NCBI RefSeq assembly: GCF_055900595.2
Contig: NZ_CM148325.1
Length of the DNA stretch: 64,000 nucleotides
Reading direction: 5' to 3' (one strand)
The position numbers and the translations under genes were made by a program. The notes below the pieces were generated by a model that saw only the letters and a program-made list of their open reading frames with translations, was not told where the DNA came from and ran no database searches. Shown here piece after piece: positions 20,342 to 55,014 of the stretch (position 1 is its first letter; each line of letters opens with the position of its first letter).

Positions 20342-21250
20342 TTAACTTTGCAGATAGCCGCATTCTCGCCGAAATTGCGTGATTAATGACGCGGTCAGTG
20401 GTGTCTGGCGACTATCACGCCGCTGAATCAAATAATAGGCCGCTTTCGGTAAAATTTCGCTAACCGGCAACATCACCAGCCCCTGTCCGTGCAAGGGATC
20501 GCAGCCCATTTCTTCAGGTAGTATGCTGAGAAAATCGCTTTTTGCCACCAGACTGATACAGGCTGAAAACGTCTCGCAGACTACGCCGACCTGTGGCGTT
20601 TGCGCCTGATCGTCAAGCAATTCACTCAACTGTTTGTAGTAGCTGCCGTGTGGCGTCGGCATTGTCCAGCTGTAGTCCAGTAACTGTTTGATCGAACGGG
20701 CACCAATGGCGGGATGTCCCGGGCGGCAAAAGATCGCGAATTGCTTTTCCAGTAATTTCTCAAAAGTAAATTCGTGGTCGTAGGGTCCCTGATAATAGGT
20801 ATTGATGGTGAAATCCAGTTCTCCCTGTCGCAATTCATTAATCATCGACACCAGTTGCCCTTCCATAATGCGTACTTTTACCTGCGGATGCTGCTGATGA
20901 AAACGAGATATGACAGCTGGCATCAGACTGCGGGAAATACTGGCCCCCATGCCGATATTAATTTGCCCTGCCAGTTGCCCTTGTCGTTGGCGAATATCCT
21001 CTTGCGCTGCGCGCAGCTCTTCAAGAATAAGACTGGCGTGCTGATAAAAACTTTCACCGGCATCAGTTAACGTCACGCCTTTACTACGGCGAAAAAAGAG
21101 TTGCGCCGCTAACCCTTCTTCCAGCTCCTGAATAGATTTACTCAGTGCCGGTTGCGACATATTCAACATGCGGCTCGCTCCGCGAATGCTGCCCTGACGA
21201 GCCACTTCAACAAAAGCCCGAATTTGATGAATTTTTACCTGAAAAGCCAT
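20342..21250 (-). CDS. abgR: LysR-type regulator AbgR
   Basis: 302-aa ORF with N-terminal HTH (LNMSQPALSKSIQELE); divergent from abgA. Confidence 0.9.
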   Translation of the reverse strand: MAFQVKIHQIRAFVEVARQGSIRGASRMLNMSQPALSKSIQELEEGLAAQLFFRRSKGVTLTDAGESFYQHASLILEELRAAQEDIRQRQGQLAGQINIGMGASISRSLMPAVISRFHQQHPQVKVRIMEGQLVSMINELRQGELDFTINTYYQGPYDHEFTFEKLLEKQFAIFCRPGHPAIGARSIKQLLDYSWTMPTPHGSYYKQLSELLDDQAQTPQVGVVCETFSACISLVAKSDFLSILPEEMGCDPLHGQGLVMLPVSEILPKAAYYLIQRRDSRQTPLTASLITQFRRECGYLQS

Positions 21251-25754: not shown

Positions 25755-26270
25755 ATGCTGAGATTACTTGAAGAAAAAATTGCCACGCCACTGGGTCCAC
25801 TGTGGGTGATTTGCGATGAGCAATTTCGCCTGCGGGCGGTTGAATGGGAAGAGTACAGCGAACGCATGGTGCAACTGCTGGACATCCATTACCGCAAAGA
25901 AGGCTATGAACGCATTTCTGCCACCAACCCAGGTGGTTTAAGCGACAAGCTTCGTGAATATTTTGCCGGTAATCTTAGCATTATTGATACGCTTCCCACT
26001 GCCACGGGGGGGACGCCATTTCAGCGCGAAGTCTGGAAAACATTACGCACAATCCCCTGCGGGCAGGTAATGCATTACGGCCAACTGGCTGAACAATTGG
26101 GCCGCCCCGGCGCGGCGCGTGCCGTAGGTGCGGCAAATGGATCGAATCCCATCAGCATTGTTGTGCCTTGTCATCGGGTCATTGGCAGAAACGGTACCAT
26201 GACCGGATATGCAGGCGGAGTTCAGCGAAAAGAGTGGTTATTGCGCCACGAAGGTTATCTTTTGCTGTAA
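25755..26270 (+). CDS. ogt: O6-alkylguanine-DNA alkyltransferase Ogt
   Basis: 171-aa ORF with active-site PCHRV motif (VVPCHRVIG). Confidence 0.9.
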
Positions 26271-34178: not shown

Positions 34179-36230
34179 ATGACTATTATGGATGATAAAC
34201 AAATTACGGTCTGGCTTAAACACAATTGCTGTTCAACGGACATTCCTGCCATTGCCGAGGCACTAACGAACCATGCAGAATGGCTTTTAGAGCTAGCGCC
34301 AGATCCTATTGAACAAGGTAGTTCATGTTTACCGCCGACAGCTGCAGCCGGTATTTTTCTTGGCGCAGCGGCGATGGTTCACTGCGGCGAGGCTAGTGGT
34401 GCAGAAACCTGGCTCGAAGCAGCCATTACTGATTACCATTTCCTTAATCCAAATGGATATAGTTCATGGAGAGGCAGTACGCCTGTTTTTACAGCAATAT
34501 CGCGTTACCCGGCATTAAGAATGGTGTTATTTAACGCCGCTTGCGCAATGGAAGACTGGAATAAAGCATCCGCTGTTCTTGAATCGCTTTTCCATGCCAG
34601 CGATGTCCCGGAAGATAACCCTGTCGCCCCAAATTTTACCCCTTATGCGCTGAAAGCGTTTATCGCGGATTACCACCCGTTAGGGCCTGCTTATTATGAT
34701 GAAACCTGGTTGCTGGCAAAACAAGCGTGGTTAATTAATGCGGGCGTTCTGGATGAGCGAACCTGCAATACCTGGAAGCAATATACCCGCCACTTGCGCC
34801 ATTTGATCCACAATGCACAGTTTGCCGATGCGCTCTCTTTTGTACGCAGTAAAATAGAACCGTTAAATCATATCCATACCTACTCAGACTTTTATCTGTA
34901 TGCGATTGGTTTATTTTCTTATACTAGTCAGCTAAATGAAGCGCTGACCTGGATAAAACAGTTAATCCACAACAATGATGGTCATTTCTGTGATCTTTTC
35001 GTTTCAACTGGCAAAGAGCGCCGAATAAAGCCTGAACTTAGTACCTTGCTGAATAATCTCTTGCACAGCGCAGAGTTTCAGGCGTTGCAGGATAAATATC
35101 TCACCGTCGGACATGATGTTGTGCATTCTGGTCCCTTCATGTCAGTTTATGAAAAGGTTCTTGGCGGAAAGTCCCGAAAGCGCTGCGCGATTAGTCGAAA
35201 ATTAATCTCGCCCGGCGAAGCGGTTTATGAATATCGTCATTTGGATAGTGTGGAATATATTGCAGCGAAAGCGGCCTTTCAGACATCTGAGCTAAATAAT
35301 ATCGCCCACCGGCATCATAATGATAGTTATCAGTGGCATGAATTTGCCGCCCAATGGCCTCGTCGGGGTTCACTTTCTCACCCAGATATTGCCCGTTATT
35401 TGTTTGAGCGCCAGGAAGGAAAATGCTTTGATGCCGCAGAGTTTATACAACTGATTGCGGAACCGTTTGTCTTTCCGATGCGTTTCATATGGGTTGCCGG
35501 GTTGTCCTTTGAATTACATCAGTATCCGGATGCCTATTTCGTAAATGACAATATGGCGGGTGAATTTGTTAATCTCTGCTGGATGGCTATGAAATGCGGA
35601 CATGCTGGCGACATTTTCAAACAACTGGCCCACGAGCCGCATGACGTTGCTGACCCTATTTACGCCATGCTCGCCACGTTTGACCGCGCTGATTGCCGTA
35701 GCGCGGCCGCCGCGCACTTTGGACAACCGGAACTACCGGAAATAATGGCACTGGCTTTCAGTTCGAGGTTATCGCTCGACAGCGTCCTTACCATCGCTGA
35801 GTTTGGTAAAAATCAGCCGCGATTTTCACATGCGCTAGCAACGGCCCTCCTGCGTTACAACCTGCACATCTACTCAAACTATATGCCGCAGGTTAATTGG
35901 TACCTTCAGGGGCTGGAACACTATGCTTTGGCAAAAGGCGGTCAACTTTTAAATTTCTTTGTGCATATTCCAGAACAAATTCCCGTTCTGGCGACCATGC
36001 TGGAACATGGCGTATTAGTGCGTGGGATCGGTGAAGGTGCCTATGATGGTTATGATAATTCAGCAAATTCATTTCATCATGCCGTCGTGATGCACTGCCT
36101 CGCGCACGCGCCGGAAAAAGTCCGCTACTGGATGGAAACACCCTGGATTCAGAACTATTTAGTGAATGCGCCGCTGCGTCAAACGGCGCGCCATGTGGAA
36201 GCCTGGCATAAAAAGTTTGGCATCAAATGA
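34179..36230 (+). CDS. Hypothetical protein (~683 aa), function unknown; not present between tpx and tyrR in K-12 as I recall
   Basis: Track ORF 34134..36230 (opens with TTG); likely start ATG 34179 or 34188 downstream of GGAG (34174..34177). No signal peptide, TM segment or Walker A motif seen; Trp/Tyr/His-rich, apparently helical. Sits between tpx terminator and a GC hairpin (36239..36259) shared with the tyrR 3' end. Confidence 0.6.
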   Translation: MTIMDDKQITVWLKHNCCSTDIPAIAEALTNHAEWLLELAPDPIEQGSSCLPPTAAAGIFLGAAAMVHCGEASGAETWLEAAITDYHFLNPNGYSSWRGSTPVFTAISRYPALRMVLFNAACAMEDWNKASAVLESLFHASDVPEDNPVAPNFTPYALKAFIADYHPLGPAYYDETWLLAKQAWLINAGVLDERTCNTWKQYTRHLRHLIHNAQFADALSFVRSKIEPLNHIHTYSDFYLYAIGLFSYTSQLNEALTWIKQLIHNNDGHFCDLFVSTGKERRIKPELSTLLNNLLHSAEFQALQDKYLTVGHDVVHSGPFMSVYEKVLGGKSRKRCAISRKLISPGEAVYEYRHLDSVEYIAAKAAFQTSELNNIAHRHHNDSYQWHEFAAQWPRRGSLSHPDIARYLFERQEGKCFDAAEFIQLIAEPFVFPMRFIWVAGLSFELHQYPDAYFVNDNMAGEFVNLCWMAMKCGHAGDIFKQLAHEPHDVADPIYAMLATFDRADCRSAAAAHFGQPELPEIMALAFSSRLSLDSVLTIAEFGKNQPRFSHALATALLRYNLHIYSNYMPQVNWYLQGLEHYALAKGGQLLNFFVHIPEQIPVLATMLEHGVLVRGIGEGAYDGYDNSANSFHHAVVMHCLAHAPEKVRYWMETPWIQNYLVNAPLRQTARHVEAWHKKFGIK

Positions 36231-36267: not shown

Positions 36268-37809
36268 TCACTCTTCGCTTTTCTTCTGGTTTAAGCCATA
36301 TTCCCGCAACTTATTGGCAATCGCGGTATGCGAAACACCGAGACGTTTTGCCAGTTTGCGTGTGCTGGGATAATTGCGATAAAGCTGGGTTAATACCGAG
36401 CGTTCAAAACGGCTGGTGATTTCGTCCAGCGAACCTTCCATCGCATCTTCGCCCACGGCTACCGTTGCGGCGTCATAATCCGGTAACAAAATATCCTGTG
36501 GACGCAGCTCATAGCCGTCCAGTTGTGTCAGTGCGCGATAGATAGCGTTCTTTAACTGCCGCACATTTCCCGGCCACGCATAACGCGTAAGTACAGTATT
36601 CAGGTCAGCGGCCAGTTTCGGACGCGGCACGCCCTGCTCGTCGGCAAAGCGGGCGACGAACAGCTCGGTTAACGGCATGATGTCCTGCGGACAATCACGT
36701 AGCGGCGGCAGATTGAGCGTCAACACGTTCAGACGATAATAGAGATCTTCACGGAACACGCCTTTTTGCACCAGTTCGACCAAATTCTTCTGCGTAGCGC
36801 AAATAACCCTTACATCGACATGCACTTCATGATCTTCACCAACTCGACGGAAAGTACCATCATTAAGGAAACGCAGTAATTTCGCCTGCATCCGTGGTGA
36901 CATCTCACCTATTTCATCCAGCAGCACCGAACCACCGTTCGCCTGCTCAAAGAATCCTTTCTTCCCTTCCGGAGCATGACCAAAGAGCTCACTCTCGACC
37001 GCATCTTCCGGTATAGACGCACAGTTCAGCGCCAGGTAAGGTTTGCTCGCTCTGGGGCTTGCCTGATGGCAGGCGTAGGCAAAGAGATCTTTACCTGTAC
37101 CGGTGTCACCCGTAATCAGCAACGGCGCGCTTAGCATCGCCAGTTTCTGCGCCTGTTCGACAACATGCTTCATTTTCGGGCTGACGGCGACAATTTGACT
37201 GAAGGCACTGACGTCCTGTGCAGCGACATTCTGCAACTGACGGCCCATACGAATCGTCGAGCGCAACATCACCACCGCACCGGTCAGAACGTGTTGATCA
37301 TTTTCATCCTGAAGATAAACAGGCGTAATCTCCATCAGGAAATTCTGCCCATTAATAACGACATGCTCGTTATGCGAGTCTTGCGGTTCGCTTTCCAGCC
37401 AGCGTAAAAAATTAAAGCCGTTAATTAATTGCGCGGCGGTATGGTTGCGCAGGCGATCCAATTTTTGCCCAAAAAGCTGACAGCTCGCCGGGTTCGCCAT
37501 ATCCACTTTGCTTTTCATATCAACAGAAAGCACAGGTTCAGGCAACGCCTCCAGTAACGCGCTCAACGCCAGATGCTCACGTTCGGAAGGCATCCACGGG
37601 ACAGTACGCACATCGGTAACACCTGCAATACGGCGTATTTCGGCCATCAGACTGCTGAAGCTCTCAAACTCCAGTTCAGCAAAATTGAGGTAGATTCGCC
37701 CAATGGGGTCAATCTCAATACCGCGTAAATCAATGCCTCTTAGCACGAGTAGATCGAGTAATTCGCGGGTCAGACCGAGTCGGTCTTCACAAAAGACTTC
37801 CAGACGCAT
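36268..37809 (-). CDS. tyrR: Transcriptional regulator TyrR (sigma54-type AAA+ domain, HTH)
   Basis: Track ORF 36268..37836; start moved to MRLEVFCEDRLGLTREL (513 aa); Walker A GDTGTGKD. Confidence 0.95.
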   Translation of the reverse strand: MRLEVFCEDRLGLTRELLDLLVLRGIDLRGIEIDPIGRIYLNFAELEFESFSSLMAEIRRIAGVTDVRTVPWMPSEREHLALSALLEALPEPVLSVDMKSKVDMANPASCQLFGQKLDRLRNHTAAQLINGFNFLRWLESEPQDSHNEHVVINGQNFLMEITPVYLQDENDQHVLTGAVVMLRSTIRMGRQLQNVAAQDVSAFSQIVAVSPKMKHVVEQAQKLAMLSAPLLITGDTGTGKDLFAYACHQASPRASKPYLALNCASIPEDAVESELFGHAPEGKKGFFEQANGGSVLLDEIGEMSPRMQAKLLRFLNDGTFRRVGEDHEVHVDVRVICATQKNLVELVQKGVFREDLYYRLNVLTLNLPPLRDCPQDIMPLTELFVARFADEQGVPRPKLAADLNTVLTRYAWPGNVRQLKNAIYRALTQLDGYELRPQDILLPDYDAATVAVGEDAMEGSLDEITSRFERSVLTQLYRNYPSTRKLAKRLGVSHTAIANKLREYGLNQKKSEE

Positions 37810-41665: not shown

Positions 41666-42571
41666 TCAGAACGCGTAATTCACACCGACACCTGCATAAT
41701 GGAATTTATCGCTGTCGCCTTCATCGTGATCCTGCCACTCAAACGCGTATTCCAGCGAAACGGAAAGACCATTCTGGAAATCATAACCGTAAAACAAACC
41801 AAGACGGTTAAAATCATGGCCTTCACGTTCGATATCATCCTGCCAGTCCCAGTTACTCCAGCGATCCAACCCAATGCGCGTATACGGTGTTACCGAGTGA
41901 TTGCCGAGCGTCAGCGGTAAATAGGCGCGAATTTCTTGCGTGGAGAATTCACCGTTATTGCGGCTGTCGTCCATATTGAAGCCGCGCTCGAGATAATAGT
42001 TCACTCGCAAGGCAACCGTTTCGTTGAAGGTATATTGCAGACCCGTTTCCGTTTCGACACGGGTATCAGCATAACCGGTTGTATTCAGATCGTTGGCAAA
42101 TTTATACATCGACAGCCATCCGTTGAAACGTAAATCGTCAGTCAGTTTCACATCCCAGTCTGGCGCGATTTTCCAGCGCTGCATATTTGCCGTGTCTTTA
42201 CCCGGTTCATCAACATAGTGATAACCATAGTTACGGAAACCACCGGTCAGGCCGAAACTGAAATCATCGCTTTCGAGAAACTGATAATGCACTTCGAGTT
42301 CCGGGCGATCAAACCAGTTTCCACGTTTACCCGCGCTATAATCTACCGGCCCTTCCTGGTAATAAGCCAGCGATATTCTCCACGGCCCATTGGCAGCATT
42401 AAAATAGACGGAAGGCTCCGCCAGCCCGTCCATATCTTCGCCATAACCCTCGACGTTTTCTATTTCGTACATCGCGCCGATATTAAAGTGCCAGTCGTTT
42501 TTTTCCTCAGCCTGTGCGCAGGCCATTCCCGCACACATCACCAGTGCGGTACAGGGTAATAACTTTTTCAT
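41666..42571 (-). CDS. ompG: Outer membrane porin OmpG
   Basis: 301-aa ORF with signal peptide and C-terminal aromatic residue (…VNYAF). Confidence 0.9.
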   Translation of the reverse strand: MKKLLPCTALVMCAGMACAQAEEKNDWHFNIGAMYEIENVEGYGEDMDGLAEPSVYFNAANGPWRISLAYYQEGPVDYSAGKRGNWFDRPELEVHYQFLESDDFSFGLTGGFRNYGYHYVDEPGKDTANMQRWKIAPDWDVKLTDDLRFNGWLSMYKFANDLNTTGYADTRVETETGLQYTFNETVALRVNYYLERGFNMDDSRNNGEFSTQEIRAYLPLTLGNHSVTPYTRIGLDRWSNWDWQDDIEREGHDFNRLGLFYGYDFQNGLSVSLEYAFEWQDHDEGDSDKFHYAGVGVNYAF

Positions 42572-42616
42572 TATTGTTCCTTGTATTATCCTGGGGGAAT
42601 GCCTTCCCCCCTGTAT

Positions 42617-43699
42617 TTAGCGAATTGCTATTTCCGTTTCTGCATCAAAGAAATGACATTTGGTCATATCAAAATGAATAGTGATATTTTCTCCTGCATG
42701 ATAATCATTTAACGCACCAGCACGGACCACTAACTCGTGCCCCCCAACCGTGGTGTAGAGCATAAATTCCGCACCGGTTAATTCTGCCACGCTAATTTTG
42801 GCGGAAATGTTATTTTCCTCTTGCGCATCCGGATGAATATCTTCCGGGCGTATTCCCATCACGATGGGCTTATGCAAGCTTTCCTGCGTTTTCAGAACCG
42901 CTAATTTATCTTCGGGAATGGTTAATTTAAGCGTTTCCGTAACGAATTTATCGCCATCGATCGTGCCGCGAATAAAATTCATTGCTGGTGACCCAATAAA
43001 GCCGGCAACAAACATATTCGCCGGTTGGTTATAGACCGTTTTCGGCGCACCGACCTGCTGAACAATCCCATCCTTCATAATGACAATCCGCGTCGCCATG
43101 GTCATCGCTTCGGTCTGATCGTGGGTCACGTAGATCATGGTGGTGTTCAGTTTCTGATGCAGCTTGCTGATTTCCGCGCGCATTTGTACGCGCAGCTTGG
43201 CATCCAGGTTAGAGAGCGGTTCATCCATTAAAAACACGCCCGCTTCGCGCACAATCGCCCGTCCAAGCGCCACACGCTGGCGTTGCCCGCCGGAAAGCGC
43301 ACCCGGCTTGCGTTTCAGGTACTCACGCAGGCCAAGGATTTGCGCCGCCCAGTTAACCCGCTCATCTATCACCTCTTTGGCGATTTTTTGCATCTTCAGG
43401 CCAAACGCCATGTTGTCGTAGACCGTCATATGCGGATACAGCGCGTAGTTCTGGAACACCATCGCAATATTGCGCGCTTTGGCCGGAACGTCGTTCATTC
43501 GTTTGCCGTCGATCAACAGATCGCCGCCGCTAATCTCCTCAAGCCCGGCAATCATACGCAGCGTCGTCGATTTACCACAGCCCGACGGGCCGACAAATAC
43601 AATGAACTCTTTATCGGCAATTTCCAGGTTGAAGTCCTTCACCACATGCACCTGGTTATCGTAGATTTTTTGAATATGTTGTAACGAAAGCTGTGCCAT
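42617..43699 (-). CDS. ycjV: ABC transporter ATP-binding protein YcjV (MalK-like), full length
   Basis: 360-aa ORF with Walker A GPSGCGKST, signature LSGGQ and Walker B FLMDEPLS; intact here, whereas I recall a truncated pseudogene in K-12. Confidence 0.85.
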   Translation of the reverse strand: MAQLSLQHIQKIYDNQVHVVKDFNLEIADKEFIVFVGPSGCGKSTTLRMIAGLEEISGGDLLIDGKRMNDVPAKARNIAMVFQNYALYPHMTVYDNMAFGLKMQKIAKEVIDERVNWAAQILGLREYLKRKPGALSGGQRQRVALGRAIVREAGVFLMDEPLSNLDAKLRVQMRAEISKLHQKLNTTMIYVTHDQTEAMTMATRIVIMKDGIVQQVGAPKTVYNQPANMFVAGFIGSPAMNFIRGTIDGDKFVTETLKLTIPEDKLAVLKTQESLHKPIVMGIRPEDIHPDAQEENNISAKISVAELTGAEFMLYTTVGGHELVVRAGALNDYHAGENITIHFDMTKCHFFDAETEIAIR

Positions 43700-43712
43700 G
43701 TTGATTCCTTTG

Positions 43713-44372
43713 CTATACGTTTTGCCAGAAGGCCGATAACCGCGGCCAGGTCAGAGATTCCGTTGAGGGCAGCAACAGTTGCGCCCCGGTTAAGCTCGTG
43801 CCGATCCCCACCGAGCGCATACCGCTGGCGTTAATGGCGTCAATACCCGCCTGCGCATCTTCAATGCCAATGCAGGCCTGTGGAGGCACGCCCAGCCCTG
43901 CACAGGCGGCGAGAAAGATTTCCGGGTCCGGTTTCGAGTGTTTAAGTTGGGAAGCGTCCGCGCAGAAGGTGAAAAACTCGCGCAGCTCCAGCGCCGCTAA
44001 AATTGTTGGGGCATTCAGGGAGACGGAGGCCAGCCCTACCGGGATGCCTTGCGCCCGAAGATCTGCCAGCAAAGGCCGAATTCCCGGCAGAACAGCGTTA
44101 ACCGTCAGTTCGCGCAGTGAGTGGACGTAGAGCAGATTTTTGCGATACGCCAGTTGCGCCCGCTCTTGCACGTTAAAGTCGCCCTCTTTGCCCCCGTGTT
44201 GCAGAATGCGTCGCAGGGACTCATCGCGGCTGATCCCTTTTAACGTCTCGTTAAATTGCACATCGATGCCGATGCCGATTTCGGCAGCAATCTGCTGCCA
44301 TGCCTGGAAGTGCAGATGTGCGGTGTCGGTGATCACGCCATCCAGATCGAAAATTACCCCTTGTAGTTTCAT
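43713..44372 (-). CDS. ycjU: Beta-phosphoglucomutase
   Basis: 219-aa ORF with HAD motif I ([12 protein letters not shown]). Confidence 0.9.
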
Positions 44373-44388
44373 TCATCCTCTTGATGCG

Positions 44389-44402
44389 TGGTAGCGGTCC
44401 CA
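44389..44402. promoter_or_regulatory. Putative LacI-family (YcjW) operator, copy 2
   Basis: Minus strand TGGGACCGCTACCA, identical to the 14-mer upstream of ycjM; inside the ycjT 3' end, 17 to 30 nt upstream of the ycjU ATG. Confidence 0.45.
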
Positions 44403-46267
44403 TTGAAGGGCAAAATAAAATCACCCAAACAGAAAACAGACTCTTCAGTCACGGAAATAAGCTGACCGTTCAACCGCAGTGAAACGGGCGCAGAAGTTCG
44501 AATCGCAATACGCTGCGCGTCGAGAGTGACCTGTAATTCGCAGCCCTGCCAGAACAGAGGGAAAGACAACTGTTGCCACTGCTCAGGTAACGCCGGATTG
44601 AGAAGTAATTCGCCGTCGCGCACGCTGACTCCGGCAAAACCCTGAATCGCGCCCAGCCAGATAGCGCCAGTTGCGGCAGCGTGGATACCGTCATCACAGC
44701 TATGCGGATCAGCACCGAGATCGATTTCACTCCCCTCGCGCCAGAACGGGTAACTCTGCGCAAGCAAGCCACAACGCGCGGCAACAATGCCGTGGATCGC
44801 TTTACTCAATGACGAGTCGTGAATGGTGCGCGGTTCATAAAATTGCAGATTGGCGAGACAAGAGGCCGCTGAAAATTGTTCCGGTAGCATGTAATTGAGC
44901 ATCACTACATCGGCCTGCTTGAGGATCTGCATCTCGTTCACTTCTGCGCGTGAATAATCCAGCAGAATGGTTTGCTTCCCGGCCGCCGCTTTGTATTTCG
45001 CCAGATCTATCGCCGGTTTCGCCATAAACGAATCATCCTGCGGCAAAACGCCGTCGGGCTGAATTTCTGGCATCCACAGCTCTTTGAGGAACATGTCGGC
45101 ACGATGAATAAACGCGTCGTCGCTACAGCAAAACTGGCGAGCAATATTCAGCGCCTGTTGGACGTTGTAGCAGGCCATATAACTGGTGTATGCGTTATTA
45201 TTAACGTGTTCGGTATATTCGTCTGGCCCAATAACATCATGAATTTCCAGGCGGTCGTTAACCCTTACCGCACGGCTAATCCAGAACTTTGCGGTCTCCA
45301 GCAGTAGCGCCATGCCTTCGTGAGCGATGAAGCTTTCATCTCCCGTTACCTGCCAGTATTGAATAACCGCCCAGGCGATATCGGCAACCAGATGATGTTC
45401 TGCCTGCGCTGAGGCCACTTTTTGCCGCAGCCCGGTACGAATGTTAATGGCGGCAAATTCCGGCGTTTCTTCTTCGCCGCTACGTGCGCTCTCCCACGGA
45501 AACAGCGCGCCCTGCCAGCCATTGCGTCGCGCTTTCTCCTGCGCCCCTGGTAAGTTGTGCCAGCGATAGCGCAGCAAACTCCGGGCAATCGTCGGTTCGC
45601 TAAACAGATGGAACGGCAGCATGAACACTTCCGTATCCCAGAAAACATGGCCTTTGTAGCCTTCCCCGGTTAAGGCTTTTGCCGCAATGCTGCTACGCTC
45701 GTCGTGGGCGGGCGTCATAATACGCAAATGATAAAGCGCATAGTCTAACGCCCGCTGATCGTGCGTATCGCAACTCTTTACCGTGATACGACGTTTCTGC
45801 CACCATTGCTGCCAGTTTTCTGTCGATGCTGCAAGAAGTTGGTCATAACTCTGTTGTGTAGACATTTCGAGCTGGCGAAGCGACCCACTGCCCCACTCGT
45901 CTAAAGCGGCTTGTCGGTCGTCCCGCCAGTCAATCCACACCCGCTTTTGCAGGGTCAGTGTTTCACCTGTGCGAAGTTGCGTGCTGGTATGTTGCAGCAA
46001 ACGGCGCTCTTTTGCGGTATAGCACTGCTGAACGTCACCATCCGCCTGACAGTGACAACTGATGGCCACATCACTGCGCCCATCCTGGGTGGTGTAGATC
46101 CCCTGCATCAAATGCTGACCAAACACCCGCACCTGGGTTTCGTCAAGATGCTGGCGACCGTGGTTGGTTTGCGTGGCGTTAATGCCTGTTGAGATCAGCA
46201 CTGATGCCTCGGCGTCCAGCGGGGTAATACTGATTTCCAGCGCGATCAACGGCAGTTGATCTGTCGA

Positions 46268-46978
46268 AATAAATATCCTCCGGCATAGCCGGAGGTTTTT
46301 CAAATGCGCCTGTAAGGCTCTGTTACCAGCCGCGCCCTAACAGGCGCATACGATCTGACATTTGCATTCAACTTCGTTACTTACGGCCCGTAAACGGGCT
46401 GCCCGGATATGGAATCGATAACTGCTCCCCCATTTTATCCTCTTCAAGCTGGTGCTTTATGTAGTCCTGTATCTTCGCCGTGTTCTTACCCACCGTATCG
46501 ACATAGTACCCTCGGCACCAGAACTCCCTGTTTCTGTATTTGAATTTCAAATCCCCAAACTGCTCGTAAAGCATCAGACTGCTTTTCCCTTTCAGATATC
46601 CCATAAAGCCGGATACGCTCATTTTGGGTGGGATTTCCACAAGCATATGGATATGATCTGCGCAGCACTCTGCTTCCAGAATCCGTACGCTTTTCCACTC
46701 ACACAGCTTTCTCAAAATACTGCCTATCGCCCTACGCTTCTCTCCGTAAAACGCCAGTCTTCGGTATTTCGGCGCAAAAACTATGTGATATTTACAGTTC
46801 CAGCGGGTGTGCGCTAAGCTCTTTTCGTCCCCCATTGGGACCCCCTTTTGATTTCTTGTTTGACACTTGCAGTTGCCAGACCGCAAGGTGTTTTAACAAA
46901 TCAAAAGGGGTTTTAATAACTGGCTCAAAGCTGAAAGCTTTCCGGAACCCCCAGCCTAGCTGGGGGTTTTCTGTGCAC
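46268..46978 (-). mobile_element. IS200-type insertion sequence (IS200/IS605 family), about 711 bp
   Basis: Boundaries inferred from where ycjT homology stops and resumes (within a few nt). Upstream of tnpA: palindrome CCCCCAGC-ctag-GCTGGGGG (46943..46961) and a stem-loop overlapping the tnpA RBS. Downstream end: hairpin CCTCCGGC-ata-GCCGGAGG (46277..46295). Confidence 0.85.
46377..46835 (-). CDS. tnpA: IS200 transposase TnpA (HUH Y1)
   Basis: Track ORF 46377..46886; start moved to MGDEKSLAHTRWNCKYHIVFAPKYRR (152 aa); HUH motif (ADHIHML) and C-terminal Tyr region (RGYYVDTVG). Confidence 0.9.
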   Translation of the reverse strand: MGDEKSLAHTRWNCKYHIVFAPKYRRLAFYGEKRRAIGSILRKLCEWKSVRILEAECCADHIHMLVEIPPKMSVSGFMGYLKGKSSLMLYEQFGDLKFKYRNREFWCRGYYVDTVGKNTAKIQDYIKHQLEEDKMGEQLSIPYPGSPFTGRK

Positions 46979-47343
46979 AACAAAGCGACGACTTGCAAGG
47001 GTGAACCCTGCGCCGTCGCTCGTGCGCCAGATAACACTGCGGCGTAATTCTCCACTGGCAAAGTCAAGCTCACGCTGCCACGCTTCGCGGGATAACGAAA
47101 AAATCTCGCCGTTTAGGGTAATTTCCATTCCCACCACGTCTGGCAGATTCACCAGTTCGTTGATTTCACCTTTCCCGGCTCGATGATAAAGCCCTGCCAG
47201 ATACATGCCGCGCGTCTGCCGCGTGTAATCTTCTTCATGGCTGGCACGAAGCCCAAGATAGCCGTTTCCCTGCGCCATTAATGAGGCATATTTATTCAGG
47301 GTATGCTGGCTGAAATGGGGTTCCGTTAATGTTACTGGCCTGG

Positions 47344-48399
47344 TCATAATTCCACACGCGTCCCTGTTTCTGCGGATTGATACAGCGCCGCCACCAGTTG
47401 CTGGATGATGTACCCTTGCTCGGCGTCGGCAATCATCACTGGCTTGCCCTGTACGTGATTGATAAAGGCTTCCATGCTGCGCAAATGACGGTTGTCGTCG
47501 GCCAGTTCCCGTTGCATCAACGTCATTAATTCACCGTTGTTGTCGGTATAGATATGCGCCGGAAATAGCGTGGCTCCCGCTTTATCGCCGCAAAAGCTGA
47601 CGTTCATAATCGACTGTTCGCGGATGTTGAGTGCAAATGATGTCTCCAGCCAAAGAATGCCGCCGTTATGAAATTCAATGGTGCCAAACAGCGAATCTTC
47701 GACGCTGTAGGTTGCCGGGTCCCACTCGCCAAATTGACCACAGCTCTTTTGCGGGCCGATCTTTTGAAAGCTATGCGCATTCACGCTTTTCACTGCCGGA
47801 AAGCCCAGCACATACATCGCGGCATCCAGCATATGAATGCCGATGTCGATCAGCGGGCCACCGCCCTGCAGTTCTTTATTGGTAAAGACACCCCAACCGG
47901 GAACGCCGCAGCGACGCAGGGCGCGAGCGGTCGTCACGTAAATCTGACCCAAAACGCCGTTGGTCACCTGTTCACGCAGTTGTTGCGTATCAAGGGCAAA
48001 ACGATGGTGAAAGTCGTAGGCCAGCACCTTGCCCTGTTTGCGCGCGGTATCGCACATTTCCCGCGCCTGTTCTGGCGTCATGGCGGGCGGTTTCTCGCAC
48101 ATCACATGGCAGCCTGCCTCCAGCGCCATCAGGGTATGCTCGTAATGAAAACGGTTAGGTGAACAGACGCTTATCACGTCAGGTTTTACCGCCAGCAGCA
48201 TGGCCTGCGGATCGTCCCACACGGATGCGTTCCCGTATTTCTCTGCCAGCGCCTGCGCCTGGGAAAGGCGGCTGTCACAGACAGCCACCAGTTCCAGATC
48301 GTTGCGGGTGCAGTAGTACGAAGCATGAACCTTATCCGCCACCTGGCCCGCGCCTATTATCGCGACCCGCAGCGGAGAGCTTGTCATTGCACTTTTCAC
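47344..48399 (-). CDS. ycjS: Gfo/Idh/MocA-family oxidoreductase
   Basis: 351-aa ORF with Rossmann motif (VAIIGAGQVADKVH); stop overlaps ycjT start. Confidence 0.9.
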   Translation of the reverse strand: MKSAMTSSPLRVAIIGAGQVADKVHASYYCTRNDLELVAVCDSRLSQAQALAEKYGNASVWDDPQAMLLAVKPDVISVCSPNRFHYEHTLMALEAGCHVMCEKPPAMTPEQAREMCDTARKQGKVLAYDFHHRFALDTQQLREQVTNGVLGQIYVTTARALRRCGVPGWGVFTNKELQGGGPLIDIGIHMLDAAMYVLGFPAVKSVNAHSFQKIGPQKSCGQFGEWDPATYSVEDSLFGTIEFHNGGILWLETSFALNIREQSIMNVSFCGDKAGATLFPAHIYTDNNGELMTLMQRELADDNRHLRSMEAFINHVQGKPVMIADAEQGYIIQQLVAALYQSAETGTRVEL

Positions 48400-48408
48400 A
48401 AAGACCTC

Positions 48409-49197
48409 TTAGCAGGTGCGCAACCAGGCCAAAGAATCACGGTACGCCTGAGCAGGATCTTCTGCCCGGATACGCCCTTCATACACCACATAGCCCTGAT
48501 AGTTATCGGCGCGCAACTGTTCAAACAGCGCGTGGAAATCGAGGGTGCCGCTGCCCGGCTGATAGCGATGGTTATCGGCAATATGCACATGACCAAGCAG
48601 GTCACGGTTGTCATGCAGCGCCTGCGCCAGGTTATCCTCTTCGATGTTCATGTGATAGAAATCGCCGATAATCTGCACATGTTTAAGGTTGTTTTCGACG
48701 ATGTAACGACGAGCATCGGCGAGCGTGTTGATCATGTGGTCCTGATAGCGGTTTAGCGGTTCGAGATACACCACCGTTCCGGTACGCGCGGCTACCTTCT
48801 CCAGGAAACGCAGGGAATCGCTCACCATTTGACGATCGCCGTCCAGGCTGCGCGGCGAGGTCATCGGCGGTAAGCGAAAGGTAAACATGCCCCACGCTGC
48901 TGGAACGACAATACCTTTGCCGCCCACTTCCGCCAGCGCCTCAAGAATGCGCTCGATCTGCTTTAAACCATTAAGACGACGCTCTTCGATAAAGTCGCCA
49001 ATCCAGCCGTCATAGCCGCCGCAGGCGGTGGTCACCGGTAAACCGGTTTCTTTGATCGCTGCTTTGACTTCTTCGAGATTGTTGACCAGCAGTTTGCCGT
49101 CAATCTCAAAACCATCAAAACCCATCTCTTTGATATAACGAAATTTCTCCAGAATATTTTCCGGAAAGAAGGCCTGATTCTGTGTGCCGATTTTCAT
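48409..49197 (-). CDS. ycjR: Sugar phosphate isomerase/epimerase (xylose isomerase-like TIM barrel)
   Basis: 262-aa ORF MKIGTQNQAFFPENILEKFRYIKEMGFDGFEI... Confidence 0.9.
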   Translation of the reverse strand: MKIGTQNQAFFPENILEKFRYIKEMGFDGFEIDGKLLVNNLEEVKAAIKETGLPVTTACGGYDGWIGDFIEERRLNGLKQIERILEALAEVGGKGIVVPAAWGMFTFRLPPMTSPRSLDGDRQMVSDSLRFLEKVAARTGTVVYLEPLNRYQDHMINTLADARRYIVENNLKHVQIIGDFYHMNIEEDNLAQALHDNRDLLGHVHIADNHRYQPGSGTLDFHALFEQLRADNYQGYVVYEGRIRAEDPAQAYRDSLAWLRTC

Positions 49198-49213
49198 TTT
49201 TCCGTCCTTAGAA

Positions 49214-50267
49214 TTAAAAAGTTACGCCCATTTTGATGCTCTGTTCCGGATGCTGGTCGACATACTGCATGTAGCTTTCCGGGCTGTTAGCAAAGGTCAC
49301 CACCGGGTCGATTAAATCTTCACAATTGAGATAACCGTTCATCAGCAGTTCCCAGCAGGTTTCTTCAATACGCTTGCGGCTCCAGCGCGGATAATCCGGG
49401 TTCGGTTCACTGCACGCACGAGAGAAGACAATTTTGGCGTTGTTGAAATGCGCTTCACGTCCGAGGTTAAAACCTTCAGCAAACGGTTTGGCAAACGCAA
49501 CATAGGAGATGGTGCCGCCATAAGCCAGGCCGCGCAGTGCCGATTGCAGCGCGTCGGCGTAGCCGCTGGTTTCGATAATCACATCGGCACCCTGCTTGCC
49601 GGTCAGCGTTTTAATCTCTTTGCCTACATCCGTGCCAATGGGGTTAAGGCAGAAATCCGCCCCGTGGCGACGGGCAATATCACAGCGATGAGCGATAGGA
49701 TCGACACCAATCACCACCGACGCGCCAGCGCGTTTTGCCAGTTGAATGGCAATTTGACCAATCGCGCCAAGCCCTACCACCACCACAAAATCGCCCACGC
49801 GCACGTTGGCATCGCGCACGCCGCTCATGGCAAACTGCGCCGGGTCGTAACAGACGGCGTTTTTCCACGAGCTACCTTGCGGCATTTTGCGCAGTTTGTA
49901 GTTATTCACCGCGTTAATGATGACCGTTTCGGAAAGCGGGCCGTAGCCGCATACGCTGTCGCCCACCGCGTAGTCGGTAACCTCGCTGCCGCACTCGATA
50001 ATGTCGCCAACCACCATGTTGCCAAGCTGGAACTTGCCAAACTCAATGCCGCGCGGCGCATCTGCCGGACGGGGGGGTGAACATCTGCCATTCGCCATTA
50101 AAGTCTTCATTAATAAACGGGCTGGCGGCGCGGAAATCGACCACTTCCGTCCCGTGTTTCGGCGCGCCGAACCGCACGCGGATCTTCACTTCATTGGCTG
50201 AAATCGCCCTGTCTTCATACTCCACCAACGCGGCAACGCGCGGTGCTGTGGCTACTAACTTTTTCAT
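49214..50267 (-). pseudogene. ycjQ: ycjQ (zinc-type alcohol dehydrogenase) with +1 frameshift in a C7 run
   Basis: N-terminal 74-aa ORF (50043..50267, MKKLVATAPRVAALVEY...QMFTPPSGRCAARH*) and C-terminal 298-aa ORF (49214..50110) overlap in different frames around G7 at 50071..50077 (C7 on the coding strand). Confidence 0.7.
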
Positions 50268-50297
50268 GTAAAACTCCTTGTCAAGAAACTGGCCGCT

Positions 50298-51140
50298 TTA
50301 GCCCTTCACGCCACCGGCGGTCAAACCACTCTTAATAAAACGTTCCGAAAGTGCATACATAATCACCACCGGCAATGCGGTCACCAGCGAGGCCGCCATC
50401 ATTCGGCCCCAGATGTAATCAGGGGTACTGAACAGCGCGTTCAGGCCTACCGGTAAAGTGAAATTGCTGGCGCTGGAGAGGAAAATCGAGGCAAACAGAT
50501 AGTCGTTCCACGCCACCATAAAGCAGTAGACGAACACGGATATCAGGCCCGACATCGCCAGGGGCACTGTGATACGGAAGATGATTTGCAGACGGTTGAG
50601 GCCATCCATCATCGCCGCTTCTTCGATTTCATCAGGGATGGTGTCGAAGTAGCTTTTCAGCATAAACACGGCGGTGGGCAGGGTTTGCGTCACCATGGTG
50701 ATGATCAGCGCCATCTCGGTGTCGTAAATGCCAAGCGCAGTGATGATTTTGAACAGCGGCACCACCAGCAAAATGCCGGAGAACATGTACACCGTGTAAA
50801 AGCTGGCGTTGATGGTCATTCGCCCTTTAAAGCGCAGGCGGGAAAGCGCGTAAGCCCCGAGAATGCCGAGAAATACTGCTATCACGGATGAAACTACCGA
50901 CACCACCAGGCTGTTACGGAAATAATCGACAAACGGGAAAATCACCGGGTTAAAAATGTCGACGTAATGCTCCAGCGTCCACTGCTGTGGCAGCAGCGTA
51001 GGATGCAGCGAGATCGCCTCTTTCGCGCTTTTGAACGAGGTCATCAGCATCACAAAAAAGGGAAACAGCGTGATGATGAGAAACAGCGCAAGCCCGCAGT
51101 AAAAACCGATGCGACTGAGTGTGCGTTTATTTGTTGCCAT
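50298..51140 (-). CDS. ycjP: ABC transporter permease
   Basis: 280-aa polytopic membrane ORF; overlaps ycjO stop. Confidence 0.9.
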   Translation of the reverse strand: MATNKRTLSRIGFYCGLALFLIITLFPFFVMLMTSFKSAKEAISLHPTLLPQQWTLEHYVDIFNPVIFPFVDYFRNSLVVSVVSSVIAVFLGILGAYALSRLRFKGRMTINASFYTVYMFSGILLVVPLFKIITALGIYDTEMALIITMVTQTLPTAVFMLKSYFDTIPDEIEEAAMMDGLNRLQIIFRITVPLAMSGLISVFVYCFMVAWNDYLFASIFLSSASNFTLPVGLNALFSTPDYIWGRMMAASLVTALPVVIMYALSERFIKSGLTAGGVKG

Positions 51141-52008
51141 TGAGGTTCACCCGTTTTCTGGTCAGCAGAATGACAGCGAAAATAATGATGAAGAGCACCA
51201 CCGAGATCGCCGCCGCTTTCCCTAAGTCATTAAAGGCAAAGGCGGTTTTGTAGAGATAGACGCCGAGAATATCGACCTTGGTCGTCAGCAAATAAACGTC
51301 CGCGAACATGTAGAACATCCAGATGGTACGCAGAGTCACCACCGTCGCCAGGACCGGCATAATCGCGGGCAGCGTGACGATGCGAAACCGTTGCCAGGCA
51401 TTCGCGCCGTCCATCTCTGCCGCTTCGTACAACGATTTATCAATGGTCTGCAAAATCGCCAGAAACGAGATAAAGGCATACGGGAAGTAGCGCCAGATGG
51501 CGAACAGCACCACCAGCACAAAACTACTGCCCGGGTTATCGAACCACAGCGGCGCCTGCTCATAGAGATGCAGAAGATCGACGCCGAGGTAGTTCACAAT
51601 GCCGTAGCCGTTGTTGAACATGTATTTCCAGGCGAACACCAGTGAAATGGATGGCGTTACGTAGGAGAGGATCACCAACGAACGCGCGGTCTTGCGCAGG
51701 CGAAACTCGCGGTTGAAAAACATCGCCACTGCCAGCCCGAGCACGGTGCTGCCCGCCACCACCAGCGCGGTATACCAGACCGTCATCCACAGCGAGTGCC
51801 AGAAGCCGGGATCGGAGAGAATACGCACATAGTTGCTCACCCCAACAAACGTTGACTCGATGTTGGGATTAAGCGGCAGACGTAAAAAACTGATTTCGAT
51901 ATTCGACACCATCGGCCACGCCACCAGACCGCCCAGCAGTAATAAGCTGGGCGCGAGAAGCAACAGCGCAAAGGGCATATCGGAACGACCTGAAAAAAGC
52001 CTGTTCAT
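51127..52008 (-). CDS. ycjO: ABC transporter permease
   Basis: 293-aa polytopic membrane ORF. Confidence 0.9.
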   Translation of the reverse strand: MNRLFSGRSDMPFALLLLAPSLLLLGGLVAWPMVSNIEISFLRLPLNPNIESTFVGVSNYVRILSDPGFWHSLWMTVWYTALVVAGSTVLGLAVAMFFNREFRLRKTARSLVILSYVTPSISLVFAWKYMFNNGYGIVNYLGVDLLHLYEQAPLWFDNPGSSFVLVVLFAIWRYFPYAFISFLAILQTIDKSLYEAAEMDGANAWQRFRIVTLPAIMPVLATVVTLRTIWMFYMFADVYLLTTKVDILGVYLYKTAFAFNDLGKAAAISVVLFIIIFAVILLTRKRVNLNGNK

Positions 52009-52028
52009 TGCGGATTCCTGTTCTGGGA

Positions 52029-53321
52029 TTAGTGCTGTTCGATCAGTTCATCCAGCTTTTTCTGGCTCGCTTGCAGCGTGGTTGAGAGATCGGCTTTCCC
52101 CACGGTGACGTTATGCACCATTGAACTCACCACACCAGAGCCCGTGACATCGCCCATGCGGGTAAAGTTTTTGTCCCCTACCGCACCAAAGACCTGAATG
52201 TTTGGCAGTTCGCTAATCAACTGATTCGGCAAGTCTCCCAGCGCCTTAATCACGTCGTTATCTTTCCAGGTGGCAGTAGTCACAACCGCTTTGTTCACCG
52301 GCAGCGCCGCGCCTGGCGACATCATCACCCAGTCGGCAATGTTGTCTGCCTGCTCCATAAAGGTGACAAATTTTTCTGCCGCTTCCGTCTCTTCGCTTTT
52401 TTGCCCGGCGGTAATGGTCAGCGAGGTCAACATGCCGTAGACCGCCGAGTTTTTCTCGGTTGGCACCACGAAACCGACATTTTTCGGGTCACCTTCTTTA
52501 ATCACAGCCGGAAGGATATAGGTGGAGTAAATCGCCATCGGCGCAGTGCCGTTCATAAAGGCGTCTTTCACTTCCATAATGTCGTTAGAGCCCGGCATGG
52601 TGTTGGCAGCAAGGTCGCGGTAATAGGTCAGCGCCTGCATCATCTCCGGCGTATCAAGGGTGATTTTGCCTTCGGCGTTAAAAACGTTGGCCTGATTGGA
52701 TAACGCAAACTGAGAGAACGATTGTTCCGTCAGTACGCTTTCTGCCGTCGGCAGTGCAATACCGTATTTTTTATTCGCCGGATCGTTCAGTTTCTGTGCG
52801 ACATCCAGCAACTGTTGCCAGTTTTTCGGCTCATCCAGCCCGGCTTTTGCCAGCACATCTTTGCGATACCAGATACCGCCAATCCATGCGCTGACAGGAA
52901 CACCGGTCCAGGCGCTACCATCTTCGGTGCGCACAATCCGCAGAACGCCGTCATAAAACGCGCCTTCACCGACATTACTGATGACCGTAGCAACCGCTTT
53001 GCGATCGATAAGCTGTTCTTTGTCCATCACTTTCGCGTAGTCATGGCTGGTTTCGATCACTTCCGGCAGCGAGCCGCTACGGGAAAGGGTGATGACTTTG
53101 GTGTTATAGGCATCTTCTTCCACCGGCACTTGTTTAACAGTGATGCCTGGGTTTTCTTTTTCAAAACGCGCAATTAACTGACTTATAACCGCCTGGCGTT
53201 CCTGTTCCACCGAAGAATGCATAAACTCGATGGAGACATTCGTTTTATTTTCTTCTTTACAACCTGAAATCAGGGCGCAGGAAACCAGTGCTGATAACAG
53301 CACGATTTTAGATTTAATCAT
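52029..53321 (-). CDS. ycjN: ABC transporter periplasmic sugar-binding protein
   Basis: 430-aa ORF with lipoprotein-type signal (LLSALVSCALISGC). Confidence 0.9.
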   Translation of the reverse strand: MIKSKIVLLSALVSCALISGCKEENKTNVSIEFMHSSVEQERQAVISQLIARFEKENPGITVKQVPVEEDAYNTKVITLSRSGSLPEVIETSHDYAKVMDKEQLIDRKAVATVISNVGEGAFYDGVLRIVRTEDGSAWTGVPVSAWIGGIWYRKDVLAKAGLDEPKNWQQLLDVAQKLNDPANKKYGIALPTAESVLTEQSFSQFALSNQANVFNAEGKITLDTPEMMQALTYYRDLAANTMPGSNDIMEVKDAFMNGTAPMAIYSTYILPAVIKEGDPKNVGFVVPTEKNSAVYGMLTSLTITAGQKSEETEAAEKFVTFMEQADNIADWVMMSPGAALPVNKAVVTTATWKDNDVIKALGDLPNQLISELPNIQVFGAVGDKNFTRMGDVTGSGVVSSMVHNVTVGKADLSTTLQASQKKLDELIEQH

Positions 53322-53334
53322 GAGATGTTCCTTT

Positions 53335-55014
53335 TTATTTAATCCACATAACCTGCCAGGGGCGCAGCGTTATTTCATTACCCACTATATCAACTTCACT
53401 AATCAGATCCCGACCGTGCAGGTCAGTAATATTTATATGCTGAATATTTTCACTGACATTAAACAATCCTGTCAGACAATTACCATCCGCGTTGCTTCTT
53501 TGAATACGCATTACGGATGAATTAACCGTATCGATGGTAAAATCATTATCTGGATGAAACTCGTTATGACTGCGACGAATTTTAATTAGTCGCGACAATT
53601 CATGATATACCGCGTGCCTTAACGTCGCTTTATTGTTCAGTTCGGTCGTGATCTCTTCGCTGGTGTATTTTTTACGGTTAATCGCACGGTTATATCCCAG
53701 TTTTTCGACACCTGCGTAATCATTACGCGAGCCCAGAATACTTTGAATATATATCGCTGGCACACCGGGGAAAATTAACAAAATCGCATGGGCAAGGATA
53801 AACCTGGCGCAACGTTCTTCATCGCTACTCTCGCGGCGGCTTAACGCATCCATATAAGTGACATTCATTTCATACGGACTGCGCGTACCATCGGGATTAT
53901 TTTTCCAGTTTACTAATGCCCCTTCCTGCTGTAACGCCTCGACTAGCGCTAATATCTCGCTTTCAGGCAACAAGCCTCGCAGTGGGTTAAGCCCAATACC
54001 ATCATGAGACGCGAGGAAGTTAAACCAGGTGGTTTTACTGGAAGGCAACGTCAGACTTTGCGCCCACTGGCACAGCGCCTCGACGTTCTGTTTTTGCACC
54101 GCATGTAACACCAGCGGCGGCAGTGAGAACTGGTACACCATATGCGCTTCGTCATCACCGTTTCCAAAGTAAGCAATGTTGTCTTTGTGAGGAACATTGG
54201 TCTCGGTAATGATCACAGTACCTGGTGCTACGTCATCAATAATCGACCGTAACAGCTTGATAATCAGATGTGTTTTTTCCAGATGGATGCAGCTTGTTCC
54301 CGGCTCTTTCCACATAAAGCCAACGGCATCCAGACGGACATACTCTGCGCCTTTTTCCAGGTAACACAACAGCACATCTACCATCGCCAGTAATACATCT
54401 GGGCTGCGATAATTGAGGTCAATTTGATCGTCGCTAAATGTCGTCCATAAATGGCGCGTTGAATTATCGTTCATTTGAAACGACGTTAATAACGGTAACG
54501 CACGCGGGCGAGTGACGGCGCTGAGATCGGCTTGCGGGTCAACGGCAATAAAAAAATCTTCAAAACCTGGCTGCTGTTGTAAATAGTTTTTAAACCATTC
54601 ACTTTTAGCCGACATGTGGTTGCAGACTAAATCAAACATCAAATGGCTGCATTCACCGAGCTGCTGAATATCCTGCCACTCCCCTGCTTCACTGGCGACC
54701 TGATGATAATCAATTACCGAAAATCCATCATCAGATGTCCATGGGTAAAATGGCAACAAATGGACATGTGAAAAAATGCTTTGCAGCCAGTGATGGTAAA
54801 ACTGATTAAATGTGGGTAGTGGTTTTAAATCATTACTGTGAAATTGATCGGCATAGGTAATTAACACGACATCACTTTCATCCCAGTGTTTTTTACGTCG
54901 CTGTGTAATTAATCTTTTCGCACTCTCAAGACGCGTTACAAGTTTCTGTAAATGAGTCGCGGTAAATGTTCCACCGTAGATTTCGTCCAGGTAATCCGTA
55001 ATTTTCTGTTTCAT
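53335..55014 (-). CDS. ycjM: GH13 sucrose-phosphorylase-like enzyme (glucosylglycerate phosphorylase)
   Basis: Track ORF 53335..55041; start moved to MKQKITDYLDEIYGG (559 aa). Confidence 0.9.
   Translation of the reverse strand: MKQKITDYLDEIYGGTFTATHLQKLVTRLESAKRLITQRRKKHWDESDVVLITYADQFHSNDLKPLPTFNQFYHHWLQSIFSHVHLLPFYPWTSDDGFSVIDYHQVASEAGEWQDIQQLGECSHLMFDLVCNHMSAKSEWFKNYLQQQPGFEDFFIAVDPQADLSAVTRPRALPLLTSFQMNDNSTRHLWTTFSDDQIDLNYRSPDVLLAMVDVLLCYLEKGAEYVRLDAVGFMWKEPGTSCIHLEKTHLIIKLLRSIIDDVAPGTVIITETNVPHKDNIAYFGNGDDEAHMVYQFSLPPLVLHAVQKQNVEALCQWAQSLTLPSSKTTWFNFLASHDGIGLNPLRGLLPESEILALVEALQQEGALVNWKNNPDGTRSPYEMNVTYMDALSRRESSDEERCARFILAHAILLIFPGVPAIYIQSILGSRNDYAGVEKLGYNRAINRKKYTSEEITTELNNKATLRHAVYHELSRLIKIRRSHNEFHPDNDFTIDTVNSSVMRIQRSNADGNCLTGLFNVSENIQHINITDLHGRDLISEVDIVGNEITLRPWQVMWIK

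Follow-up and report, generated by a model that had tools for sequence, protein, structure and literature searches.

In the poly-G/C contingency loci of Campylobacter, Neisseria, and Haemophilus, a G/C tract lies within coding sequence, and gain or loss of one base toggles the reading frame. Such tracts typically hold 8 or more G/C residues and switch at a high rate. Homopolymers also give rise to slipped-strand pseudogenes in enterobacteria, an example being ylbE of K-12 MG1655, which carries a frameshift in a G run. Pseudogenes of this kind are recognized by a length change in the run that is not a multiple of three, and by a premature stop with downstream homology in another frame, and both are seen in the gene considered here, ycjQ of an Escherichia cryptic clade I lineage. 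Like ylbE, ycjQ has a +1 change in a G/C run of a conserved gene, a premature stop that loss of one base would remove, and a lineage-specific distribution; it differs from pseudogenes of the ylbE type in that the run is itself lineage-specific, through synonymous changes, and in that the broken allele occurs in two sub-clades of one sequence type. With the contingency loci it shares a coding G/C tract in which a change of one base toggles the frame, and possibly homoplasy, but the ycjQ tract is short (6 or 7 nt), has two lengths only, is stably inherited, lies in a metabolic gene, and is known here from assemblies. Programmed +1 frameshifting of the prfB type, which is marked by a conserved arrangement and by a slippery site combined with an adjacent stop or hungry codon and a stimulator, provides a further point of comparison, and ycjQ shows neither the conserved arrangement nor the full combination.

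ycjQ belongs to the carbohydrate-utilization operon ycjM-N-O-P-Q-R-S-T-U(pgmB)-V-ompG, whose enzyme roles have been summarized, together with the literature from which YcjQ function is taken (PMC11543891). Gene order (ycjM-N-O-P-Q-R-S-T-pgmB-ycjV-ompG) is conserved between K-12 and the lineage studied here. In the 64,000-nt stretch of contig NZ_CM148325.1 (RefSeq assembly GCF_055900595.2) that we analyzed, referred to below as the window, the operon occupies 41666..55014 on the minus strand, as mapped from the annotation of strain E200086, whose coordinates are converted to those of the window by an offset of +20581, and +711 beyond an insertion sequence described below.

The split ycjQ gene

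ycjQ lies between ycjP (50298..51140), upstream, and ycjR (48409..49197), downstream, both on the minus strand and both in agreement with the list of open reading frames (ORFs). The gene itself is a minus-strand pseudogene of 1054 nt (49214..50267), a length of 1 modulo 3, that corresponds to D-guloside 3-dehydrogenase, a member of the MDR/zinc-dependent alcohol dehydrogenase family. The initial annotation had described it as split into two overlapping ORFs, and both are in the ORF list exactly as described: an N-terminal ORF of 74 aa (50043..50267, minus strand), which ends QMFTPPSGRCAARH and then a stop, and a C-terminal ORF of 298 aa (49214..50110, minus strand), which includes PRPADAPRGIEF. 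Their overlap (50043..50110) contains a run of seven C (50071..50077, G7 on the plus strand), around which the minus strand reads 5'-ATGTTCACCCCCCCGTCCGG-3'. In the upstream frame the codons passing through the run are CAG ATG TTC ACC CCC CCG, continuing TCC GGC AGA TGC GCC GCG CGG CAT and ending at TGA. By comparison with the ancestral ACC CCC CGT (Thr64-Pro65-Arg66) of intact ycjQ, the run has one additional C, and the gene is frameshifted at codon 66. The 74-aa ORF accordingly consists of 65 residues of native YcjQ followed by nine out-of-frame residues (PSGRCAARH), and its premature TGA (50043..50045) lies nine codons beyond Pro65, where the native frame is lost. The 298-aa ORF follows the native frame from approximately residue 65 to the native stop and begins at a fortuitous out-of-frame ATG.

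Shortening the run to C6 in silico yields a single ORF of 350 aa, the size that had been anticipated for the restored product, whereas the products are 119 or 120 aa long for C5 or C8 and 351 aa long for C9. The C6-repaired gene shows 0 nt differences from the gene of Z0117EC0005 that encodes intact WP_000737371.1, and C7 in place of C6 is the sole difference across 1053 nt between the ycjQ of the window and its closest relatives. RefSeq names WP_000737371.1 D-guloside 3-dehydrogenase, and K-12 YcjQ (b1313) is annotated likewise. The window gene is orthologous to b1313, with identical synteny and a shared ADH_zinc_N domain; after repair the two proteins differ at 3 of 350 residues, in keeping with the initial annotation, in which the C-terminal frame carries K-12 residues. 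At the nucleotide level 57 of 1053 positions differ (5.4%), because the host belongs to cryptic clade I. Together, the identity with the intact Z0117EC0005 gene and the 57 nucleotide but three amino acid differences from K-12 indicate long-term purifying selection and then a very recent break. The Pfam domain ADH_zinc_N (PF00107) matches residues 116-237 of the 298-aa ORF (1.9e-26), and a Pfam comparison of the 74-aa ORF gave no match. The cofactor-binding domain lies entirely within the downstream ORF. Among solved structures in the PDB, those closest to YcjQ are MDR-superfamily enzymes, namely, threonine and alcohol dehydrogenases.

By frequency alone, a G/C run of 7 nt is unremarkable in this DNA: the window contains two G7/C7 runs, where shuffled sequences lead one to expect 5.1. 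The other one, a G7 run at 26006-26012, is in frame within an intact ogt gene (25755..26270) and is of equal length in E200086, which makes it a natural control showing that runs of 7 nt are not generally miscalled. The significance of the ycjQ run comes from comparison with intact orthologues and not from run statistics.

Origin and history of the tract

Aligned at the run, K-12 reads ACT CCG CGT, CFT073 reads ACC CCG CGT, and E2348/69 and clade I read ACC CCC CGT; the idea that K-12 also has a C6 run is therefore rejected. These synonymous differences (ACT CCG, ACC CCG, and ACC CCC) mean that an uninterrupted C6 is confined to a few lineages. In a census with synthetic 62- and 63-nt queries built on the invariant flanks, about 4,840 complete E. 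coli genomes included 15 with exactly C6 and three with exactly C7, so that 18 of the ~4,840 have a run of six or more and three of those 18 carry the +1 change. Among the C6-query matches listed, the stretch in the record was always of the same length as the query, and the near-matches to the C7 query in complete genomes included no C8. The mutable C6 homopolymer is therefore a rare product of synonymous substitutions. With most E. coli, the window shares no more than 90-95% identity. Predicted C5, C8, and C9 products in the window background were absent from a collection of about 15 billion proteins, as were C5, C7, and C8 products in the E2348/69 background, both being weak negative results that depend on gene calling. 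Truncated members (42-267 aa) of the 90% protein cluster were considered as possible alternative frameshift alleles and set aside as uninformative, being mostly Enterobacter fragments or partial proteins at contig edges. A literature search for ycjQ mutations found just one unrelated synonymous SNP.

To place the two lengths in a phylogenetic setting, we aligned 19-36 kb from 15 sequences of the ST485 cluster and seven outgroups. Cluster members are at most 17 SNPs apart in 19 kb, compared with 300-450 for the outgroups; between the window and E200086 there are 31 SNPs over 64 kb, plus an insertion of 711 bp. Derived SNPs at 36451, 54209, 58383, 63233, 63570, and 63857 unite eight complete ST485 genomes, and three further contigs typed over 19 kb are derived at 54209 and 58383, the two sites within that span. 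Both run lengths occur in this clade: C6 in E400634, E500002, E600003, Z0117EC0005, AST85, and others, and C7 in E200086, 100117, and 100248 (the GEMS trio), in GCA_030003475.1, which has 55044G in common with the trio, and in the metagenome contig k119_8776. The comparison of homopolymer length among related genomes that had been proposed when the split was first described thus gives C7 in the GEMS trio and C6 in the closest intact relatives. The window falls elsewhere, being ancestral at all six clade-defining sites and belonging to a second group defined by 47946G, which includes GCA_958310195.1 and GCA_965259535.1 and within which 51090A and then 44381T/54531C are nested. Verified members of the 47946G group are all C7 except GCA_974490495.1. 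Inside ycjQ no substitution was found in any ST485 sequence aligned, and the break is therefore recent. Contig k119_8776 (ENA ERZ27239214; its name is in MEGAHIT style) has seven SNPs within 70 bp at the window-equivalent positions 50388-50457, in the 3' end of ycjP and about 310 bp from the C7 run, a cluster that must stem from chimeric assembly or from recombination over a small patch.

The nested markers of the 47946G group show that C7 has been transmitted vertically through the successive nodes of the window's sub-lineage. A single origin of C7 is incompatible with the SNPs on either side of the run, barring a reversion or a recombination patch, and the distribution of C7 and C6 requires two or more events. 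Either C7 was gained twice, or it was gained once, with a reversion or a recombination patch in addition; such a patch would span less than about 6.3 kb, which is how far apart the markers at 47946 and 54209 lie.

The exception in the 47946G group, GCA_974490495.1, is the closest relative of the window, with which it has the IS200 junctions and the derived SNPs 44381T, 47946G, 51090A, and 54531C in common, and yet it is C6 at ycjQ and encodes an intact YcjQ. The 20 kb compared contain three long G/C runs, and its only indels relative to its relatives are the loss of one base from two of these: the run at 42606 is C5 instead of C6, and that at 50071 is G6 instead of G7. The first of these runs (42606..42611), in the ycjV-ompG spacer, served as a control for homopolymer behavior: it is C5 in all seven outgroups, and its C6 state in ST485 therefore marks another gain of one base in a homopolymer, on the stem of ST485. 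This C6 faces a G5 run, and a small hairpin immediately before the ompG ribosome-binding site could be lengthened by it. Paired -1 indels in G/C runs are typical of long-read under-calling or reference-guided polishing, and we do not accept GCA_974490495.1 as a true C7-to-C6 revertant; its C6 is probably an assembly or polishing artefact. If true, it would represent reversion and not error. The reversibility foreseen in the initial annotation for a slipped-strand pseudogene is accordingly plausible as a mechanism, but the one apparent instance of it is suspect.

The presence of C7 in two sub-clades separated by C6 strains, with all outgroups C6, bears on how the tract behaves. The C6 tract may have changed length independently at least twice within ST485, a true homoplasy, and may act as a low-rate, heritable, reversible switch of the guloside branch, possibly with a trace of wild-type protein made through +1 slippage on CCC-C; we entertain this only tentatively. 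Contingency-type phase variation, with C6 and C7 as ON and OFF states of that branch that toggle repeatedly in ST485, is in our judgment unlikely. It would account for the placement of the GEMS trio inside the clade derived at all six sites at which the window's 47946G group is ancestral, and for at least two length changes within so tight a cluster (≤17 SNPs in 19 kb), and a change from C7 to C6 does give the exact wild-type sequence. A recombination patch of less than 6.3 kb (markers 47946-54209) accounts for the same distribution equally well, however, and C7 has been inherited stably through several nested nodes. Only the two lengths are seen, the C5, C8, and C9 products being absent from the protein collection within the limits of gene calling, as is C7 in the E2348/69 background, and C8 being absent from the complete genomes. 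Moreover, a tract of 6-7 nt is short for a contingency locus and falls below the long-tract criterion, and the function of the gene is metabolic, not one of surface structure or restriction-modification. We regard ycjQ C7 as a slipped-strand pseudogene of an ordinary kind, recent in origin, whose site is mildly mutable.

Authenticity of the C7 allele

A frameshift in a homopolymer invites the suspicion of a sequencing or assembly error, in which case the true run would be C6 and ycjQ intact, and the initial annotation had left the choice between this and a pseudogene open. Long-read and some older technologies are well known to err at homopolymers, and related public assemblies do show long-read-style errors: besides GCA_974490495.1, this holds for AP027848.1, in which ycjM and ycjV are split, ycjN is shortened, and private insertions of 1-2 bp occur, all of which we read as signs of indel errors. 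The genomes nearly identical to the window are those of GEMS stool isolates, and isolates 100117, 200086, 400634, 500002, and 600003 have been described as Escherichia cryptic clade I, ST485, OND:H45, and eatA positive, with assemblies made by Unicycler hybrid assembly from HiSeq 4000 150-bp pairs (about 0.84-1.2 Gb per genome) and ONT R9 reads (PMC13064198). Within this one announcement and its Illumina-first hybrid pipeline, the run is C7 in two isolates (100117 and 200086) and C6, with ycjQ intact, in three (400634, 500002, and 600003). A context-specific error should not split isolates processed in the same way, and C7 is therefore to be taken as real. The allele is identical in the RefSeq genomes of E200086, 100117, and 100248, in all three of which PGAP marks ycjQ as frameshifted, so that the lesion is already flagged in public annotation. 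Isolate 100248 is reportedly named in a companion announcement to the five-isolate one (PMC13063984), and its C7 likewise argues against error.

Evidence from other sources points in the same direction. The exact 74-aa product is on record in 92 contigs (149 index blocks; NCBI, ENA, and Logan), draft assemblies included, and C7 was confirmed in the DNA of GCA_958310195.1, GCA_030002555.1, GCA_965259535.1, GCA_030003475.1, and k119_8776. The allele thus recurs in three hybrid assemblies and in at least five further independent assemblies, at least four of them drafts and one a metagenome contig. It also co-segregates with nested derived SNPs, as an inherited mutation does and as a random error, which would lack phylogenetic structure, would not. 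In the 72 kb of the E200086 annotation that we inspected, the only pseudogenes are abgR and ycjQ, and this assembly is therefore not riddled with errors. On the strength of the contrast within one pipeline, the independent assemblies, and the 92 contigs, we reject sequencing error as very improbable; the recurrent, phylogenetically structured C7 favors the pseudogene half of the original alternative.

Finally, it is scarcely credible that full-length YcjQ is made from C7 by programmed +1 ribosomal frameshifting or transcriptional slippage: CCC-C is a +1-prone quadruplet, and if the P-site tRNA-Pro slipped by +1 on it within ACC CCC C CGU, the product would read Thr-Pro-Arg, the wild-type sequence, but the shifted arrangement is not conserved (3 of ~4,840 complete genomes are C7, the others are in frame, and the closest relatives are C6), the history of the C7 allele goes no deeper than a shallow clade, CCG (Pro) follows as the next codon of the 0 frame, with the 0-frame stop eight codons downstream and none adjacent, and no recoding stimulator near CCC-C was evident on reading the sequence. 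Overall, ycjQ C7 is best explained as a genuine, heritable +1 insertion: at codons 64-66, a C6 homopolymer that is itself lineage-specific gained a base when replication slipped. To this reading we give a probability of roughly 90%.

Lesions in the ycj operon and their probable consequences

ycjQ is not the only damaged gene of the operon. An IS200/IS605-family insertion of 711 bp (46268..46978, minus strand), whose tnpA ORF (46377..46886, minus strand) matches Pfam Y1_Tnp (7.9e-37), lies inside ycjT (44369..47347, minus strand), the gene for a kojibiose phosphorylase of family GH65, and splits it into ORFs of 140 and 644 aa; in relatives ycjT is intact and encodes 755 aa. None of the eight complete ST485 genomes has the insertion, nor was it found in any complete genome of the collection searched; its junctions in GCA_974490495.1 are identical to those of the window. 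It is a second lesion in the operon of ycjQ, one that is specific to the sub-lineage of the window. A 24-kb query containing the IS has 22-24 matching places in ST485 genomes, versus 5-9 in other clade I genomes, which suggests that IS copy number has expanded in ST485.

ycjV, which encodes an ABC-transporter ATPase (42617-43699, minus strand), is intact in the window lineage, with 1083 nt, whereas ycjV/ymjB is a pseudogene in K-12 MG1655. The K-12 pseudogene resembles ycjQ C7 as an independent inactivation within the ycjMNOPQRSTUV-ompG cluster of one lineage, and differs from it in affecting an ABC ATPase gene by another lesion. Different lineages have thus broken different genes of the ycj operon. 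Such repeated, independent lesions suggest that the cluster is dispensable in some niches, and the IS200 insertion in ycjT fits relaxed selection on the operon.

Two further differences were seen outside the operon. abgR (20342-21250, minus strand) is a full-length 302-aa ORF in the window and a PGAP pseudogene with an internal stop in E200086, so that the two ST485 sub-lineages do not have the same set of pseudogenes. In the tpx-tyrR interval, clade I carries WP_103253635.1, a hypothetical protein of 680 aa, at about 34188-36230 on the plus strand of the window (from E200086 13607-15649); the corresponding locus in Z0117EC0005 is annotated as two CDSs.

The order of events that these comparisons suggest begins with synonymous changes that produced C6 in few lineages, Escherichia cryptic clade I and E2348/69 among them, followed by replication slippage from C6 to C7 in part of the clade I ST485 cluster. 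The frameshift would cut off the catalytic N-terminal domain from the Rossmann domain, with presumed loss of D-guloside 3-dehydrogenase activity, and loss of YcjQ would block the first step of the YcjQ-YcjR-YcjS guloside-to-glucoside branch. The long untranslated stretch could also exert polarity on the genes from ycjR through ompG. A -1 slip in C7 would restore the exact wild-type gene, and an occasional +1 ribosomal slip on CCC-C, yielding Thr-Pro-Arg, might supply the exact wild-type protein, at a low level only.

For the use of public genomes, ycjQ offers a worked example in which a homopolymer frameshift is shown to be real through same-pipeline contrasts, exact-product look-ups, and phylogenetic congruence, without recourse to raw reads. 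Conversely, a true frameshift may be "repaired" without notice in some assemblies made from long reads or polished against a reference, as seems to be the case in GCA_974490495.1, and calls of "intact" or "broken" from assemblies such as this one and AP027848.1 need checking at the level of reads. The C7 allele may also serve as a lineage marker within ST485. Its biological importance is small, in that one lineage of cryptic clade I Escherichia is affected; that lineage, to which the eatA-positive GEMS isolates belong, has probably lost the conversion of D-guloside to D-glucoside. More generally, ycjQ illustrates how synonymous changes can build a mutable tract that later breaks the gene.
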